Sequence record: OR352956.1
DNA from: Escherichia phage AV126
Reading direction: 5' to 3' (one strand)
Length of the DNA: 64,000 bases
In this document: in pieces, positions 29,495 through 37,409 of the stretch
How the letters are laid out: each line of letters opens with the position of its first letter
How positions within the stretch are numbered: position 1 is the first letter of the stretch
The notes under the pieces: model-generated
What the model was told of the DNA's origin: nothing
Databases searched by the model: none
Seen by the model: the letters and a program-made list of their open reading frames with translations, nothing else
Position numbers and translations under genes: made by a program

Positions 29495-32400
29495 ATGGCA
29501 ACATTCCCAACATATCCAGCAACGTCTCTTGAACAGGGCGTAGATCTGGTTATTTTCTCGTCTAACCAACTCCATGATGTTATTAATGGAAGTGCTACAG
29601 AGAGTATTGAAACAGAATCAGGGTTGATACCAACCCTGAGAAAAGCCCTTGTTGACAACTTTTTCTTTAAAAGTCCATTAGATTGGGCGCAAGGCACAAA
29701 CGAAACAGTTTTTAACCAACTTCGTTATTTCCAGAACGGAGTGTTGAGTGGTTATTACTATGCGCCTAATGCTACGCTGGTAAACCCAATTCCTATGCAA
29801 GGGACTCCAGTAGGAGATAACAACTGGGTATTGTGGGGACTGAAGACAGAACAACTAGCAACAGAAGTCACCCCTTGGGTATATTCTGGTGCAACTGGTT
29901 ATGAAACAGTAATCAGTCCTCCCTACATCTTTGATAGTGCTATTGTTACAATCAATGGTGTTATTCAGGTTCTGGGAGAAGCTTTCCGCATAGAAGATAG
30001 TAAAATCATTTTATCTGAACCTTTGGGACATGATCCTGCAACAGGACTGCCAAACAAGCTTTTTGCCTATATTGGTAAAATCGTAGCTTCCGCAGATACA
30101 GATCCTAACTTAGAAAACCGTCTTGTCAGTTTAGAAACAAAAACTGAAGAACTGACAGAAAGCATGGATAAAGTACCTTTACAAACTATTGCTCGTAAAT
30201 ACGGTTTGTTGGATGACGAAGTAGCTTACGCAACAGCGGGTCAATCATTAACAGGGATTAAAGCTCTGTATGATCCGGTAGCACAATCTTCCTACACATT
30301 GCCTCCTAACATCACAGGGACTTTAACATCTTTGTCTGTTTCTGGAGTAATGACTTATTCTGGCGGATCTGTAGATCTTTCTGCATTAGCTGTTGAACGT
30401 GGACAGTTTGTTCATTTGCCTACAAGCTTTGGTAATAATGTAACTCTGACAGCTAAAAATCAGACGATTGGGCGTGGCGCTGGTCGCTATCGTTGGGCGG
30501 GAAGTTTACCAAAAAGTATTTTAGCTTCTGATACATTGGAAACAAGTGGTGGATTAGGTCCAAATGCATGGGTTCTAACTAATACAGAAGGACTGTTAAC
30601 CCCTCGTGGTGGAACATACAACGATTTATTCGATGTTGTCCACTTGTCAGAATTTGCTAACAATACAACTACATATACCACACCAGAAGCAGCTTTCCAG
30701 GCGGCACTGTTAGCAGCAAAAGCTTCGAAAAGTAAGATTCTCGACGCTTACGGTTGCGATATGACTTTCACGACAAGCTCTTTTGATATTCAAGATATCA
30801 CTTTGCGTGGGGGTGTGTTCCGTGGTCAACGCGACTATCGTGTGCAAAATGCTACAGTAGAAGGCACAACTTTCCGTAACTCTCGTGTTATGTATTGGGG
30901 TGGTGCTGTGCGCATGTTCGATTGTTTGTGGGACGGTGCTCCTCGCGCAGGTCAAGTTGGTAGCTTGGTATTCCAAGGCAACCCAATATCAGGTACTTTT
31001 GAAATTGATAATTGTACTTTTAAAAATGGGTTATATGGCATCCTTCAACAAGGAACAGGGGAACCAGTAACACGCGGTGTCTTCCGTAACCTTACCTTCA
31101 TGGACATGCAAGGTGATGCAATAGAACTGAACGTCATCAATAAACATTATGATGATGGTTGTGTGATTGAGAATATTTACCTGTCTAATATCGATGGGAC
31201 TAACGCTCCTATTCCTCTGTCCAACTGGGGTATCGGTATTGGTGTAGCTGGTAAAGGACCATATGGTTACGGAATCCCTGATGATCAATATTGCAAGAAT
31301 ATTACAATTCGTAACGTTTTTGCAAAACGTTGTCGTCAGATTGTCCACGTAGAAGTTGGCCGTAATATTTCTATCGAAAACATTCATGGCGATCCAGATC
31401 AAACTGTATCTGTTGGGACAGGTTTGGCAACTGGCGCAGTTGTAATGTATGGAAGTAAAGATTTTACGATTGATGGTGTTTACGGAGAGCCTAAAACAGA
31501 CGGTAGCACACTTGCAAGTAATATCCGTATGATTTATTTGGAGTGGGGAACTAACGCAGTTCTGGACGAAGAGGGCAATCCGGTAGTTCCGGCACAGGGC
31601 AGACCTTCAAACCCATGCTTTAACTATTCTGTTCGTAACATTCACACCAAAACTGGGCGTGTTTTTGCAGGAGTTTCCGCTGGGCCAGGTTATGAAAACA
31701 GAGTCAGCTTTGAGAATATCCGTTGTGCTGCGTTGCAGTTGTTCGGTGTAGCTTCTTGGCTTTCAATGTCTAACATCACCTGTAATATCTTTGATTGTGT
31801 TGGTCAACCTGAATCTGGTCCAGGGACATTTTATGATGGATTCTTCCGTAGAGAAAAATCTGTTCTTGAGATGGTTAACGTAAACTGTTACCCAGATGGC
31901 AAGACTATGGTTACTGGTCGTCCACAGTGGAGCCGTTGCCGTTACTCTGATATTCATCGTGTCAACTGTAATGTTGAAGCTAATATGTATACCAATATCG
32001 CAGGTGGTATTGGAGCTATTGTAGGGACAACTGGCAAAGTTTATTACTTAGAGCCTAACCCTAGCCGAAACATTGATGGGATGCATTTCCCAACAGGGAA
32101 GGAGTTTGACAAAGGGGATATGATAGTCAAAGCGGATAATACGTTCTTCCTTGTAACAACAAGTGGGGCATACATTCCAGATATCCCAGCTTTCGGTATT
32201 CGAGCTACACAGGCAGGAGATACCTTCCTGACACAGAACTTGACTCCTAACGGGACAGCAACAAACGCTTCTTGGTTGTATCACTATCCTCTGTCAGCAG
32301 GAACACGTATCCGTATTCCTGGTGCTGGTGTAGGTGGAGCAGATTTGGACACAGTTATTACTCGTGCACCTTATCAAGATAATGATACGTGGACTAACCC

Positions 32401-32548
32401 AGTTAAAATAGACATTGCAGATCCAATTGTAACGCCTACGAGTGCTGGAGTTAGAATCAAAACCATACCTAACGATTCTAGTAATGTTTCTGTAGGTAAT
32501 ACTGCGGTTATTCGCCCAACACCAGTGGTAGATGTGCCAACAACCTAA
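29495..32548 (+). CDS. tailspike protein with right-handed beta-helix (pectate-lyase-like) domain
   Basis: 1017 aa; central region with periodic Asn/Ile/Val/Gly repeats typical of parallel beta-helix (NITIRNVF, ISIENIHGD, VFRNLTFMDMQGDAIELNV). Confidence 0.5.
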   Translation: MATFPTYPATSLEQGVDLVIFSSNQLHDVINGSATESIETESGLIPTLRKALVDNFFFKSPLDWAQGTNETVFNQLRYFQNGVLSGYYYAPNATLVNPIPMQGTPVGDNNWVLWGLKTEQLATEVTPWVYSGATGYETVISPPYIFDSAIVTINGVIQVLGEAFRIEDSKIILSEPLGHDPATGLPNKLFAYIGKIVASADTDPNLENRLVSLETKTEELTESMDKVPLQTIARKYGLLDDEVAYATAGQSLTGIKALYDPVAQSSYTLPPNITGTLTSLSVSGVMTYSGGSVDLSALAVERGQFVHLPTSFGNNVTLTAKNQTIGRGAGRYRWAGSLPKSILASDTLETSGGLGPNAWVLTNTEGLLTPRGGTYNDLFDVVHLSEFANNTTTYTTPEAAFQAALLAAKASKSKILDAYGCDMTFTTSSFDIQDITLRGGVFRGQRDYRVQNATVEGTTFRNSRVMYWGGAVRMFDCLWDGAPRAGQVGSLVFQGNPISGTFEIDNCTFKNGLYGILQQGTGEPVTRGVFRNLTFMDMQGDAIELNVINKHYDDGCVIENIYLSNIDGTNAPIPLSNWGIGIGVAGKGPYGYGIPDDQYCKNITIRNVFAKRCRQIVHVEVGRNISIENIHGDPDQTVSVGTGLATGAVVMYGSKDFTIDGVYGEPKTDGSTLASNIRMIYLEWGTNAVLDEEGNPVVPAQGRPSNPCFNYSVRNIHTKTGRVFAGVSAGPGYENRVSFENIRCAALQLFGVASWLSMSNITCNIFDCVGQPESGPGTFYDGFFRREKSVLEMVNVNCYPDGKTMVTGRPQWSRCRYSDIHRVNCNVEANMYTNIAGGIGAIVGTTGKVYYLEPNPSRNIDGMHFPTGKEFDKGDMIVKADNTFFLVTTSGAYIPDIPAFGIRATQAGDTFLTQNLTPNGTATNASWLYHYPLSAGTRIRIPGAGVGGADLDTVITRAPYQDNDTWTNPVKIDIADPIVTPTSAGVRIKTIPNDSSNVSVGNTAVIRPTPVVDVPTT

Positions 32549-32557
32549 TGGAAATAG

Positions 32558-32585
32558 AGAGGGGGGATTCCCCCCTCTTCTTCCA
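32558..32585 (+). terminator. hairpin terminator after tailspike gene
   Basis: AGAGGGGGG-att-CCCCCCTCT 9 bp stem followed by TCTTCC. Confidence 0.5.
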
Positions 32586-32614: not shown

Positions 32615-34639
32615 ATGAATTTAACAAGACCTAATAGTGCGATAGCCGATCTGGTAGAAGCTACTTATCGAAAACGTCGCAGTTTTGAGGCAGGTTTTAC
32701 ATTACGTAATTCCCGTGAAGTTTTGCTGTTAGCGGCAGAAGGGAATTATTACCAATGGAAAGGAACTTTTCCTAAAGTAGTTCCAGCAAACTCTACGCCA
32801 GCCACCACAGGCGGTATTTCTTCCCTTGCATGGCAAAGTGTTGGGACCGCTGATGATATAGCAATTATCAATGCCAAGTTTACGGCAATGCAGCAACAGA
32901 TTGATGATCTGTCGGAAACAATACCTGAAGCTGGTAAATCGGCTTATCAGATCGCACTTGATAATGGTTTTGTTGGAACAGAAGCACAATGGCTTGCTTC
33001 TTTGAAAGGGGATACTGGTGCTCAACTTAATATTAAAGGATCGTTAGCAAGCACTAGTGAACTACCATCTACAGGTAACGTTGCAGGGGATGGTTATATC
33101 GTAGGCGATGTGATTTACGCTTGGGACGGTTCTGTTTGGAAACTTATTTCTTCTCTTGGACCAGAAGGGAAATCAGCTTACGAGGTATGGTTGGCAGATG
33201 GTAATACAGGATCTGTTTATGACTTTCTTGCCTCTATAAAAGGTGATAAAGGAGACGTTGGTCCTACAGGTCCACAGGGTGCACCTGGTGTCAACGCTAA
33301 TGGTTTTGATTACCGTGGAGATTTGCCTTCTACAAGTAACTTACCACAACCTAACTCTGAAAACGTAAGCCAAGCTTATTCTATTAATGGTAATCTTTAT
33401 GTCTCTAATGGGACAGCTTGGGTCAACATGGGTAATATTGTTGGTCCTCAAGGTCCACAAGGTGAGGCAGGTAAAGACGGTCTAGATGGAACAGATGGAG
33501 ACGAAGGGAAATCTGCATATCAAAGTTGGCTGGACGCTGGTAATGAAGGGACAGAAGTAGATTTTATTGCCTCGCTTAAAGGTCCAAAAGGAGACAAGGG
33601 AGAGCAAGGAGAACGAGGACCACAAGGCGAATTAGGTCCACAAGGACCAGTGGGTGCAACAGGATCAGGTTTAGAGATTATCGGGGTTCTGAACAGCGAA
33701 GCTGAACTTCCTCCGACTGGAGAAGTAGGTGACGCATATAAAATTAATAATGATTTGTATGTTTGGGTTCAAGATGCTACGGAATGGATGAATGTTGGTA
33801 GTCTTGGAGGAACATCAATTACAGCTAAAGGTCATGTTCCGAACAGTGAAGCTCTACCTGTTTACAATAACTATGGTGATGCCTACTTAACTGAAGACAC
33901 TAGTAATCTTTACATCTATACCTACGATCAAGACACCAATTCCGCATCTTTTGTTGACATGGGAAGTATTAAAGGCGACAAAGGTGAAAAAGGGGATAAA
34001 GGAGATAAGGGTGATCCTGGAACAAACGGAACCAACGGTACTGATGGGACCAACGGTAAGGACGGCGCACAGTGGTTTGTAGCAACAACTAATCCAGTCG
34101 CAGGAGACGGTGTTATCAATGATTACGCCTTCAATACTACCACTGGAGCAGTGTTTAAGAAAACAGATTCTTCTACGTGGACACTTATAGGAACTCTTCC
34201 TAGTATACCAGAAGCCCCTCAAGACGGCTTGACGTATGGTCGTTCTGATGGAAACTGGATCGAAATATCAGGATCAGATCCTACGGAAGCTATAACACCA
34301 ACTAGAGTTACAGCAGGTTTCATGGAACTTGAAACAACTACTACCAACTCTGGAGCATCTTGGACTCCTTCTGGAACTTCCAATATGTATGTTGTTACAG
34401 TAACTGACGCTCTGACAGTTGGAGCATGGCCTGGTGTCACTGGCTCTACAAAACCTAAAGCGTTTTCAGCAATGATTTATTTGATTCAAGATACAACGGG
34501 ACACACGGTTACACTAGATGCGTCTTATGGAGCACTAAATGATACAGAAATAGCAACTACTGCTAACGCAGTAACAATTTTGCAATTAACGTATCCTGGT
34601 GTGGGTGATATCGTGGACATGGTTGTTGTAACACGATAA
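32615..34639 (+). CDS. collagen-like repeat tail fibre protein
   Basis: 674 aa; four Gly-X-Y blocks alternating with repeated GKSAYQ...SLKG modules; own terminators on both sides. Confidence 0.65.
   Translation: MNLTRPNSAIADLVEATYRKRRSFEAGFTLRNSREVLLLAAEGNYYQWKGTFPKVVPANSTPATTGGISSLAWQSVGTADDIAIINAKFTAMQQQIDDLSETIPEAGKSAYQIALDNGFVGTEAQWLASLKGDTGAQLNIKGSLASTSELPSTGNVAGDGYIVGDVIYAWDGSVWKLISSLGPEGKSAYEVWLADGNTGSVYDFLASIKGDKGDVGPTGPQGAPGVNANGFDYRGDLPSTSNLPQPNSENVSQAYSINGNLYVSNGTAWVNMGNIVGPQGPQGEAGKDGLDGTDGDEGKSAYQSWLDAGNEGTEVDFIASLKGPKGDKGEQGERGPQGELGPQGPVGATGSGLEIIGVLNSEAELPPTGEVGDAYKINNDLYVWVQDATEWMNVGSLGGTSITAKGHVPNSEALPVYNNYGDAYLTEDTSNLYIYTYDQDTNSASFVDMGSIKGDKGEKGDKGDKGDPGTNGTNGTDGTNGKDGAQWFVATTNPVAGDGVINDYAFNTTTGAVFKKTDSSTWTLIGTLPSIPEAPQDGLTYGRSDGNWIEISGSDPTEAITPTRVTAGFMELETTTTNSGASWTPSGTSNMYVVTVTDALTVGAWPGVTGSTKPKAFSAMIYLIQDTTGHTVTLDASYGALNDTEIATTANAVTILQLTYPGVGDIVDMVVVTR
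33242..34066 (+). repeat. interrupted collagen-like Gly-X-Y triplet repeats (coding)
   Basis: Blocks at about 33242-33292, 33443-33511, 33581-33670, 33974-34066. Confidence 0.8.
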
Positions 34640-34642
34640 CAG

Positions 34643-34669
34643 AAGCCCCGAAAGGGGCTTTCTTTTTAT
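34643..34669 (+). terminator. intrinsic terminator after collagen-like gene
   Basis: AAGCCCC-gaaa-GGGGCTT hairpin followed by TCTTTTTAT. Confidence 0.75.
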
Positions 34670-34680
34670 GGAGGGTTTAA

Positions 34681-37353
34681 ATGTTTCCAATTCCAATATT
34701 TACTATTATGACCAGCACTGGTGTCGTTCCTCTGCCAGCAGGTATTGTTAAAAAAGTAATCACTTTAGATTACCCAGATAATGCTGGTAATTCTAATAGC
34801 AGTTTAGCAATTTTGCTTAATGATGGCAGATTGTTTACTCAAGGCGCAAACCTTTTTGGTGAGATTGCAGATGGAACTCGTAGTGCACGATTCAATAATT
34901 TCCACTTAGCTTCTACTGTAGTAGCGGATGTGTTTACCGCAGATCGTTGTTTTGTTATTAAAACTAACAGTGGGGGATGGCAATATTCAGGATTGACAGC
35001 AGGGTTAGTAGGATCTATAGCAGCAGGTGGGACGGATGCATGTGTAACTACTTGGACCAGCTTTCCATCTGTAATAACAGGGACTATCTCTTTAGCCAAT
35101 CTTAAAGAGGTTAAGGGAGGATATAACAACACTCTCTGGTTAATGAATAGTGGTGTTCTTTATGGATCGGGTCAAAACACAGTAGGCAGTTTAGGTGCAA
35201 GTACTACTAACGAAGTTTCTACTCCTCGTCAGATAACAAGTGCAGCAGTTGCTTTTGATGCAGGTTACAACCAATGCTCTTATGTCAACAATGTGGGAAC
35301 CTTGCGTGTTTGTGGAGCCAGCAAAGGTTTAGCAGGTAACAATAACACAACAAAAGCTTTTGTAAATGCTACGATATCCACTACTGAAACAGTGTATGTC
35401 AAAGATTACATCAATACCGTTTCCCAGACAATAGTTGTAGGAGATACCTCCGGCGGCACGGGTACAGTAAACTACTTATATGTTAGGTCTAATACAGAAA
35501 CAACCTACACTAAACTGGATACCTTTGCAGCAGGTTTCTCAACATGGAAGTTTCCACCAAGCCGCCACTCTTTTTTCGTTGGGATCAATAATTCCTTGTG
35601 GGCTATTGGTAAGAACTACACTGCAAACTTAGGTTTGGGGTATGATTCTGCGAGCGGAGATCCACTTCAAGTGGGAAAACCAGTTAAACCTGAAGGAGTG
35701 GGTTCCTGGGATATAAACAAGCTCACAAGCGTTCATACGCTGAATATGGATGTTACTAACCAATTAGGTTATCAAGGAACCTTTTTCGTTTATAATGGAG
35801 ATATGTATTATTCCGGTATTTGGAAAGATGGGAAAGCCTCGTATCTGTTCAATAGTGGTCTAAACTATAATAAATTCACACCAATAGCAAGCTCCGTGAT
35901 TACGGGTGATATTCTGGCAACTGGCTTAACTACAGATTCTTTAGGAATTTGTATTGTAGGTGGAACTAAACAGTTGACACATTCTGTTAGCCCAGAAGGA
36001 GGTAAACTTTTCAATATTAAATACACTTCTTCTGCCCCTGCAAACATGACAATATCATCTACTGGTTTAATGACTTTCCATGCAGAAGGTGGTTTTGATG
36101 CAGGTATGACAGCCTTAAACGCTGAAGGAACAACTTTATCAGATACCTCTGGAGGATATGCTTCAACATTGAGTGTTTACACCCCTAGCTTATCTGCGAT
36201 GGATGTAGGAACAACACAAACAATGGTAGCAGAAATAACGCCAACAGGAGCAGCAAGCTTACCTGGTATGGTTGTTGAGTATACAACTACAGATCCTAAT
36301 GTTGCTACAGTAGATCCTACAACTGGTGTAATAACTGGTGTTGGTGATGGTGGTTGTAGAATTGGTTGCACAGCTACGTATCAAGGTGTTGTTACCGCTT
36401 CTGATAGTTCTTATTTAACGGTGAACGCTGTTGCGGGAAAGGAGTTAGCTCCATCTCCGAGTAGTAGTCTAACGGTTCTAAACGGATATTTCAACCACTC
36501 GGCAGATGGGGCAATTACGTTCCCAATTTTATCGGGTACTGTCACACCAGCTAACTTTGTAGTTAAGGTGGATGACGTTGTAATACCTTCAAATAAAGTA
36601 ATATTTAGAAATAAAGCTTTCTCTACAGTGGATAGTTATCCAGCAGGAGAATATAGACTGGCTATTGAATTTGCAAGTGCTTCAGTAGTGAATAGTGTTG
36701 ATGTGTCTATGGAAGCAAATCCAGATCTTTTAGAATTATGGGGCGGCAACAGAATTGGTTATTCTACAAGCCCAGCCTCACAATTCTTAAAAGGTTGTGC
36801 TAACTTAAGACGAATAACTTCTGATTGTTTTAGTAACACATCTTACACCGGAACATCTATAAGTGGTATCTTCTCTGGCTGTACAAGTTTGACAGCTATC
36901 CCTGAAGGATTATTCAGTGATGCTTTATTTCCTTCAATGACAACAATGTCAAGCACGTTTGAAGGTTGTACATCTTTAACATCTATTCCTTCAGATTTAT
37001 TTAAGAATCTATCAAAAGTTACAAGATATTCTTACACCTTTAAAGATTGCACCTCTCTTGCAGAAGTTCCAGCAGGAATGTTTGATAATATTCCAACGAA
37101 AGTGACCTCTTTAACAGCTACATTCCAAGGTTGTTTAGGACTTACAGATTTTAATAAGATCTTTAATGACAACCCAGGGTTAACTGTTTGTGGTAAACGT
37201 GGAGCATTATCTTCTTTCTTTAGTGGATGCACAAATCTTACAGGAACAGGAACAACATTAACAAATACATTAGGCGGAGTAGCTAATAGTTACCTATTCA
37301 GGTATTGCACAAAACTTTCGGATTATAACAACATTCCTTCCGGTTATAAATAA
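34681..37353 (+). CDS. adhesin-like tail fibre protein with RCC1-like, Ig-like and BspA-type LRR repeats
   Basis: 890 aa; GGAGGG SD; N-terminal beta-propeller-like repeats, Ig-like segment (VATVDPTTGVITGVGDGG), C-terminal F.GCTSLT..P repeats. Confidence 0.55.
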   Translation: MFPIPIFTIMTSTGVVPLPAGIVKKVITLDYPDNAGNSNSSLAILLNDGRLFTQGANLFGEIADGTRSARFNNFHLASTVVADVFTADRCFVIKTNSGGWQYSGLTAGLVGSIAAGGTDACVTTWTSFPSVITGTISLANLKEVKGGYNNTLWLMNSGVLYGSGQNTVGSLGASTTNEVSTPRQITSAAVAFDAGYNQCSYVNNVGTLRVCGASKGLAGNNNTTKAFVNATISTTETVYVKDYINTVSQTIVVGDTSGGTGTVNYLYVRSNTETTYTKLDTFAAGFSTWKFPPSRHSFFVGINNSLWAIGKNYTANLGLGYDSASGDPLQVGKPVKPEGVGSWDINKLTSVHTLNMDVTNQLGYQGTFFVYNGDMYYSGIWKDGKASYLFNSGLNYNKFTPIASSVITGDILATGLTTDSLGICIVGGTKQLTHSVSPEGGKLFNIKYTSSAPANMTISSTGLMTFHAEGGFDAGMTALNAEGTTLSDTSGGYASTLSVYTPSLSAMDVGTTQTMVAEITPTGAASLPGMVVEYTTTDPNVATVDPTTGVITGVGDGGCRIGCTATYQGVVTASDSSYLTVNAVAGKELAPSPSSSLTVLNGYFNHSADGAITFPILSGTVTPANFVVKVDDVVIPSNKVIFRNKAFSTVDSYPAGEYRLAIEFASASVVNSVDVSMEANPDLLELWGGNRIGYSTSPASQFLKGCANLRRITSDCFSNTSYTGTSISGIFSGCTSLTAIPEGLFSDALFPSMTTMSSTFEGCTSLTSIPSDLFKNLSKVTRYSYTFKDCTSLAEVPAGMFDNIPTKVTSLTATFQGCLGLTDFNKIFNDNPGLTVCGKRGALSSFFSGCTNLTGTGTTLTNTLGGVANSYLFRYCTKLSDYNNIPSGYK
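36781..37340 (+). repeat. BspA-type leucine-rich repeats (coding, about six copies)
   Basis: Repeated FSGCTSLTAIP / FEGCTSLTSIP / FKDCTSLAEVP / FQGCLGLTDF / FSGCTNLTG / FRYCTKLSD units. Confidence 0.6.
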
Positions 37354-37355
37354 GA

Positions 37356-37385
37356 AAAGGAGCCATTTGGCTCCTTTCTTTTATA
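37356..37385. terminator. bidirectional terminator between convergent modules
   Basis: AAAGGAGCC-attt-GGCTCCTTT hairpin with T-rich flanks on both strands; between + strand stop (37353) and - strand ssb stop (37410). Confidence 0.7.
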
Positions 37386-37409
37386 AAAACTCTTTATAAA
37401 TCAATAAGA

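Follow-up and report, generated by a model that had tools for sequence, protein, structure and literature searches.

A candidate receptor-binding protein whose C-terminal cassette is exchangeable, encoded at the end of the tail-gene block of Escherichia phage AV126

The terminal tail gene and its described relatives

Proteins of receptor-binding and tail-fibre loci that combine a conserved N-terminal part with a swappable C-terminal part are a well known kind of phage protein. Here we describe such a gene from Escherichia phage AV126, located in a stretch of 64,000 nucleotides of the record OR352956.1 (this whole stretch is called the window in the following). The gene is an open reading frame (ORF) on the + strand with an ATG start (34681..37353) and encodes a protein of 890 amino acids (aa). 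Judged by its nucleotide sequence, the window belongs to a Phapecoctavirus, a phAPEC8-like E. coli myovirus of the Stephanstirmvirinae; the region shows 97-99% DNA identity to Phapecoctavirus genomes (EF1-1, ESCO5, tuntematon, 536P1 and others). The phage group has already been sequenced and the gene is already known and annotated: its orthologues ESCO5 gp226 and phAPEC8 gp086 both carry the annotation 'tail protein', and in the 2025 Wecvirus paper (PMC12695924) the gene of Phapecoctavirus and the proposed 'Wecvirus' was named "TfpM1". The assignment of genes to fibres in Phapecoctaviruses and their relatives is still unresolved (BASEL, PMC8594841; phi92 cryo-EM, PMC13450770).

The same terminal position in the locus is held by orthologues in phAPEC8, ESCO5, rV5 and phi92. 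ESCO5 gp226 is 98.7% identical to the window protein over its full length, and the proteins of this group are 890 or 891 aa long. In phAPEC8, ESCO13 and PhiWec179/181/186, unlike in the window protein, the C-terminal part is an unrelated cassette with a gene transfer agent (GTA)-head-spike-fibre domain. The Vequintavirus rV5 likewise has a terminal gene in its fibre locus, followed by a bidirectional terminator, which encodes gp27 (1878 aa, 'Ig-like domain-containing protein'). This protein resembles the window protein over its first ~195 residues (39% identity) and likewise carries the MxPIP peptide at the N-terminus, but it is more than twice as long and its distal part is different, tblastn aligning aa 1-195 only. 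In phi92 the position is occupied by gp152 (202 aa, 'lambda protein V like fold', L004:6956-7564), in which the N-terminal peptide is fused directly to two immunoglobulin (Ig)-like domains of the Big_2 type, 64% identical to aa 411-584 of the window protein. Having neither a propeller nor a C-terminal cassette, gp152 represents a minimal version. TfpM1 is scored as absent from Justusliebigvirus in the Wecvirus paper (PMC12695924), yet phi92 has this truncated orthologue in the same place. The phi92 protein gp153 was considered as a detached alternative cassette and rejected, as a tblastn search of that locus gave no match to the cassette.

Further relatives show other combinations of the same parts. 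The proteins of PVP-SE1-like Salmonella phages are 564-609 aa long and consist of propeller and Ig domains without a tip; PVP-SE1 gp40 is homologous over aa 1-582, and GAP31 also encodes a homologue. A 494-aa protein (P0002) from a phage contig of 127.8 kb lies at the same syntenic site and matches aa 400-890 at 58% identity, and it is made up of Ig domains and a leucine-rich repeat (LRR) tip with no propeller.

In the window the gene closes the + strand block: every large ORF between 299 and 37353 lies on the + strand, every one from 37410 onward lies on the - strand, and the sign change of the GC skew coincides with this switch. An earlier reading of the region made from the sequence alone (the sequence-only reading) had placed the gene in the tail module as the last gene on the + strand, and both statements are confirmed. 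The gene lies in the tail and baseplate block with late-gene orientation, and its protein matches PHROG 11922 ('tail protein', category 'tail') end to end with 1346 bits.

An exchangeable C-terminal cassette

The comparison with phAPEC8 revealed that the gene consists of a conserved and an exchangeable part. The window protein is 98% identical to phAPEC8 gp086 (891 aa) over aa 1-584, and from there on no similarity is left. For the DNA, blastn gives 96.9% identity as far as position 36431 and 96.6% again from position 37375, with 943 unrelated bp in between. The left breakpoint is located at a domain boundary, where the conserved scaffold stops at codon 584, the end of the second Ig domain; the right-hand breakpoint at 37375 falls within the hairpin of the downstream terminator. 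The gene and its parts are:

34681..37353, + strand: entire gene, 890 aa; orthologues are ESCO5 gp226 and phAPEC8 gp086 (PHROG 11922, homology, synteny)
34681..34728, + strand: N-terminal peptide MFPIPIFTIMTSTGVV, aa 1-16, beginning MFPIPIF (motif conserved in orthologues; predicted local distance difference test score, pLDDT, <50)
34729..35880, + strand: RCC1-like beta-propeller, aa ~17-400
35908..36432, + strand: two Big_2 Ig-like domains, aa ~410-501 and ~505-584 (Pfam, AlphaFold2 model, phi92 homology)
36432..37374, + strand: exchangeable C-terminal cassette, 943 bp (blastn breakpoints 36431/36432 and 37374/37375)
36472..36738, + strand: beta-sandwich of the cassette, aa ~598-686 (AlphaFold2 strands at cassette residues 14-102)
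36739..37350, + strand: LRR solenoid of the DUF285/BspA class, aa ~687-890, built of seven FxxCxxL units and closed by a conserved cap at the C-terminus (CTKLSDYNNIPSGYK)

The alternative tip of phAPEC8 belongs to NCBIfam NF048003, GTA_spike_fiber (phage head-spike-fibre, GTA, domain), which it matches with 76.5 bits against a cutoff of 36; weaker relatives were found in Kagunavirus, cyanophages and Rhodobacter phages. In the phage collection searched, the LRR tip is present in 35 records (at least 90% identity), with 33 Phapecoctavirus-type records matching the whole gene, and the phAPEC8 tip in 31 phage records (at least 95% identity) as well as in further Justusliebigvirus records at 92% or 63%. 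In Justusliebigvirus genomes the phAPEC8-type cassette also lies at other sites than this locus, within genes that carry the annotation 'lateral tail fiber protein'. The tip of the window protein shows 90.8% identity to that of PhiWec188, but only 81% is reached by the scaffold; horizontal exchange would be expected to leave such a pattern, with higher conservation in the tip. The protein thus combines a conserved N-terminal part with a variable, exchangeable C-terminal part, as is characteristic of receptor-binding proteins.

A small 'endonuclease' gene matching PHROG 2340 is located between the tail gene and the SSB gene in the LRR-tip relatives Mt1B1_P17, PhiWec188 and PsgM04F, and, by annotation, in nepoznato. 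It lies ~28 nt past the stop codon, at the right-hand breakpoint of the cassette, and is absent from the window (37354-37409). No Pfam match was found for this optional gene, the PHROG 2340 match being the only one. As a lead only, it may be a homing element that promotes co-conversion of the cassette. Its positions in the relatives are:

L013:3682-4089, L007:3950-4333 and L008:1150-1318, - strand: endonuclease gene (PHROG 2340 match)

Architecture of the scaffold and the tip

The sequence-only reading had described beta-propeller-like (RCC1-like) repeats, an Ig-like segment and LRRs, and had proposed searches with domain hidden Markov models (HMMs). Such searches were carried out here, and the composition proved to be the one described.

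At its N-terminus the protein carries the peptide M-[FYL]-P-I-P-[IL]-[FL], the one element that is common to the window protein, phi92 gp152, rV5 gp27 and the PVP-SE1-like proteins. It reads MYPIPLF in phi92 gp152 (L004:6956-7003) and MLPIPLL in rV5 gp27 (L005:6001-6040), and it is also found in the PVP-SE1-like consensus; within the window the N-terminal MxPIP motif occurs only once. The conservation of this peptide among otherwise different proteins suggests that it might be a virion-docking element.

The propeller was recognised by Pfam through PF00415 (RCC1 repeat), which matched one repeat, aa 158-188, with 24.1 bits against a cutoff of 21.7. PF25390 matched aa 40-331 (E 7e-11), and with 42.5 bits this match stays under the whole-domain cutoff of 150. 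The fold is superimposable on solved RCC1-like domains. Identity between the window propeller and RCC1-like domains (UVR8, RPGR, HERC2, RCC1) as well as bacterial propeller lectins (CV39L, PLL) is 12-16%, and there is no reason to expect nucleotide-exchange activity. A search of the PDB by sequence gave marginal matches only, to RCC1-like, LRR and Big_2 proteins. The Ig-like segment corresponds to two stretches of Big_2 (PF02368), with 35.9 bits against a cutoff of 22.8, and the AlphaFold2 model shows two beta-sandwiches here, at aa ~412-500 and 512-582, with pLDDT 83-94.

The cassette itself starts with a beta-sandwich (aa ~598-686), for which Foldseek found weak matches to N-terminal domains of CBA120 TSP4 and which is conserved only in the homologues P0001-P0003. 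It is followed by tandem repeats that form an LRR solenoid. The core motif [FLIMY]xxCxxL is present seven times (aa 703, 731, 760, 787, 815, 847 and 873) with a period of 26-32, whereas shuffled versions of the protein (n=2000) contain it 0.28 times on average and three times at most. About six BspA-type repeats of the form F.GCTSLT..P had been noticed in the sequence-only reading. The repeats are real, but their number is seven, and the full form F.GCTSLT.IP is present in three of them. The designation BspA-type is right for the repeat class (DUF285/BspA), but it does not extend to family membership: all BspA/DUF285/PARCEL models stay below their thresholds in this protein (LRR_5, PF13306, 17.5 vs 27.7 bits; DUF285, PF03382, 14.7 vs 25; TIGR02167, 20 vs 30). 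We therefore dropped a strict assignment to BspA (LRR_5) and use the name for the repeat class only. The period of 26-32 residues agrees better with the 26-residue DUF285/PARCEL type.

A homology search returned 204 homologues at E <= 1e-3, and among the 120 listed many have precomputed matches to PF03382 and/or PF13306. The homologue P0006 (E 2e-40), from Phocaeicola, is named 'BspA family leucine-rich repeat surface protein'. Non-phage homologues reach at best ~35-43% identity over ~60% of the cassette. Bacterial proteins of the BspA/DUF285 (PARCEL) type are located on the cell surface, whereas the LRR of the window protein is fused to a phage tail scaffold. Another homologue, P0008, lies in a phage-like metagenomic contig (L011:6590-9419), where the adjacent gene is also of the DUF285 type and a protein faintly matching BACON is encoded nearby. 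P0007 is found in a bacterial chromosomal context, so this LRR class is common to gut bacteria and gut phages. Matches to the LRR cassette were also found in Klebsiella phages: the record of the P2-like phage ST16-OXA48phi5.4, in which gp35 ('tail protein I', 1008 aa) is encoded at L006:2547-5573, has seven, and a group of Klebsiella phages of 36.7 kb has eight. Thus, the repeat class recurs in tail genes of other enterobacterial phages.

The sequence-only reading had also considered these domains to be of adhesin type rather than classical fibre domains, and this view is upheld. In the Pfam and PHROG results for the protein we found no trimeric fibre architecture (coiled coil, beta-helix, collagen-like, triple-beta-spiral), no other trimerisation module and no chaperone; the modelled parts are all globular domains that are typically monomeric elsewhere.

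Likely function, alternatives and expression signals

Taken together, we consider it probable that the protein is a virion-borne accessory receptor-binding protein or adhesin with an exchangeable tip, encoded by the terminal gene of the lateral tail-fibre, that is, the host-recognition locus. It would be an adhesin of the beads-on-a-string kind rather than a classical trimeric fibre. The short conserved N-terminal peptide would dock it on the virion, the RCC1-like propeller and the two Ig-like domains would serve as conserved scaffold, and the beta-sandwich together with the seven-unit LRR solenoid would be the exchangeable ligand-binding tip; the propeller itself may bind sugars. An unrelated tip, such as the GTA-head-spike-fibre domain of phAPEC8, would be brought in by recombination between the point where the second Ig domain ends and the terminator behind the gene. 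The analysis shows the domain architecture, the synteny and the cassette swap with its breakpoints; that the protein is part of the virion, that its N-terminus docks it there, which oligomeric state it has and that the tip binds a component of the bacterial surface is inferred.

Most informative for the function are published mutant data. PhiWec188/190 lost infectivity on a yhaH mutant and PhiWec179/181/186 on an flhD mutant, while waaT is needed by both groups; on complementation the mutants became sensitive again (PMC12548472). The tip is of the LRR kind in PhiWec188/190 (90.8% identity) and of the phAPEC8 type in PhiWec179/181/186 (98.4%), hence the type of cassette tracks the secondary host factor. 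An exchange of the tip would change the secondary host factor that is needed, while the dependence on waaT, and with it on the lipopolysaccharide (LPS) core, would stay. A surface-binding role is plausible and is strengthened by the exchange of the C-terminal cassette and by this correlation, and from the sequence comparisons it is likewise plausible that the protein is a determinant of host range. As to the virion, gp27 was identified by mass spectrometry (MS) in virions of rV5 (3 peptides, 9 spectra, 3.1% coverage; PMC3606486 Table S5), and RCC1-like proteins were detected by MS in virions of W70, with similar proteins in other phage virions being cited (PMC11370258). Our literature search for virion MS of Phapecoctaviruses found nothing specific. 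In the BASEL paper (PMC8594841) the gene of rV5 gp27 counts as the final large one for a lateral tail fibre, and the unclear assignment of fibre genes is stressed there.

Several observations weigh against the interpretation as a receptor-binding protein of the virion. The virion evidence comes from relatives, and the identification of rV5 gp27 is weak, with partly non-tryptic peptides and low coverage. The 2026 cryo-EM study of phi92 left fibres unresolved or unassigned and does not mention gp152 (PMC13450770). The correlation with host factors comprises two groups of PhiWec phages, and it is confounded by a second fibre gene, TfpL, in which these groups differ as well (PMC12695924). The description of YhaH as a protein of the inner membrane (PMC12548472) makes it unlikely to be the direct ligand. 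The 494-aa relative P0002 has a diverged N-terminus without recognisable MxPIP peptide, which weakens the idea of a docking peptide, and the hairpin directly upstream of the gene (34642-34661) would lower its expression if it terminated efficiently.

Two other functions for a structural protein have to be weighed. The protein might be a spacer or strut of the fibre network without ligand specificity of its own, the differences between the cassettes being neutral hitch-hikers on recombination that is driven by a neighbour. The optional PHROG 2340 endonuclease beyond the right-hand breakpoint could indeed drive co-conversion regardless of selection, and five LRR-cassette alleles vary evenly, with 0.118 to 0.154 variable sites per residue over three segments and no hot-spot. 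We nevertheless regard a mere strut as unlikely: two unrelated tips, each resembling known binding modules, are kept at high frequency (the 35 and 31 records), the tip is better conserved across genera than the scaffold, and the breakpoint lies exactly at a domain boundary. A decoration of the virion for sticking to animal mucus or an environmental matrix, comparable to T4 Hoc and 'bacteriophage adherence to mucus', with Ig and LRR domains binding eukaryotic glycoproteins, would be in line with the origin of the phages from gut and sewage samples and with the fact that Big_2 domains and LRRs of the BspA/DUF285 class are typical of surface adhesins of gut bacteria, as in the Phocaeicola homologue and the chromosomal P0007. 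Moreover, the locus lacks a tip in phi92 and in PVP-SE1-like phages, which means that a tip in this place is dispensable for infection as such. Yet the gene is located in the baseplate and tail-fibre block and not in the head block, the alternative cassette is a tip domain of phage fibres, annotated as lateral tail fibre protein in Justusliebigvirus records, and in the PhiWec phages the type of cassette follows the dependence on bacterial host factors, all of which makes binding to mucus quite improbable, marginally more so than a strut.

The expression signals bear on a further possibility, since the sequence-only reading had seen the gene as a moron-like unit bracketed by strong terminators. 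Sites with hairpin and T-tract are present on both sides:

34642..34661, + strand: upstream terminator-like hairpin GAAGCCCC-GAAA-GGGGCTTT, then CTTTTT (RNA free energy, dG, -14.5 kcal/mol, z -3.3)
34670..34675, + strand: Shine-Dalgarno sequence GGAGGG, 5 nt ahead of the ATG (read from the sequence)
37356..37377, both strands: bidirectional terminator hairpin, common to the convergent SSB gene (dG -16.8 and -16.4 kcal/mol, z -4.8 and -4.7)

While the bracketing was confirmed, the designation as moron did not hold. The upstream hairpin starts 2 nt past the stop codon of the preceding 674-aa fibre gene, and the 41-nt gap between this stop and the ATG contains only the hairpin, the T-tract and the Shine-Dalgarno sequence. 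A scan for sigma-70-type promoters found no + strand promoter-like site between 34207 and the ATG at 34681 (a phage-specific late promoter might have escaped it); the nearest one, at 34178-34206 (9/12 matches), falls within the upstream gene, and the region has no excess of such sites over shuffled sequences. The composition is ordinary as well, with a GC content of 0.394 for the gene, 0.392 for the window and 0.370 for the cassette alone. A moron with a promoter of its own, or one with atypical composition and sporadic presence, was therefore rejected: although the terminator is there, the promoter-like site is missing from the gap, the GC content is that of the window, and orthologues occupy the same position in phAPEC8-, rV5- and phi92-like phages. 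An independently expressed moron or non-virion accessory protein, which is released at lysis or acts in the cell, would agree with the two strong hairpin/T-tract sites that flank the gene and with the weakness of the virion evidence. It appears very improbable to us, given that the gap offers neither a promoter-like site nor the space for one, that the composition is like that of the genome, that the position is kept, that the gene closes a co-oriented block of late structural genes, and that the two preceding fibre genes also have 3' hairpins. The last three large fibre genes (29495-32548, 32615-34639 and 34681-37353) are each followed by a GC-rich hairpin (32561-32574, 34642-34661 and 37356-37377), showing that the bracketing is not special to the terminal gene. 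The hairpins look like a regular feature of the operon and not like the insulation of one gene, and they could be graded attenuators or stabilisers of the mRNA in a late operon.

Within the interpretation as an exchangeable adhesin, a more specific version can be put forward tentatively, and we think it doubtful in this complete form: the LRR cassette might recognise a protein and not a glycan, as the tip of a monomeric adhesin docked by a ~10-residue N-terminal peptide, and its exchange for the GTA spike might switch between YhaH-dependent and flagellum (flhD)-dependent secondary recognition. If this switching were true, it would be the first functionally defined LRR receptor-binding domain in a tailed phage within the searched literature and would provide a compact two-state module for host-range engineering. 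The locus is well suited for a swap experiment. Nature provides a cassette of 943 bp with two tips of different fold, and the published mutant data point to candidate host factors. A single cassette swap could assign a function to the gene and show whether an LRR solenoid works as a receptor-binding domain of a phage; with a negative outcome the gene would be an ordinary, already annotated tail accessory protein. This is of practical relevance, as Phapecoctaviruses and their relatives are candidates for therapy with a broad host range.

Several properties of the protein are unusual for this well known kind of object. It is composed entirely of adhesin-type domains (propeller, Ig, LRR), and a module of trimeric fibres could not be detected in it; its tip is an LRR solenoid, and its two-allele cassette is very cleanly bounded. 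The literature searched contained no description of the domain architecture of this gene, of its LRR tip or of the exact breakpoints. Concerning characterised LRR or RCC1 domains in phage fibres, it contained only the predicted LRR/beta-helix domains of the jumbo phage Goslar, the sole precedent there for LRRs in host recognition by phages. In the DUF7941 host-recognition proteins of Goslar (bioRxiv 10.64898/2026.04.21.720040) these domains are likewise distal, but the scaffold and the phage family are unrelated to those of the window protein, and the Goslar case is based on prediction, too.

The 5' neighbours of the gene are an ORF of 1017 aa, the ESCO5 counterpart of which is annotated 'colanic acid degradation', and then a collagen-like tail fibre. 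This 674-aa tail fibre (32615-34639, + strand, PHROG 15437) contains several collagen-like G-X-Y runs, for instance GPTGPQGAPG and GDKGEKGDKGDKGDPGTNGTNGTDGTNGKDG, as well as repeated 'GKSAYQ...W...G' modules. The window contains no tRNA genes. Finally, the records of Campylobacter phage B15, Pseudomonas phage PsgM04F and Acinetobacter phage ABPW7 (MG065650.1, OR584014.1 and OP562383.1) closely match the E. coli Phapecoctavirus gene, with the LRR cassette in B15 (95.1% protein identity) and PsgM04F (90.2%) and the phAPEC8-type cassette in ABPW7 (99.7%); the host labels of these records may reflect mis-assignment or a contaminant.

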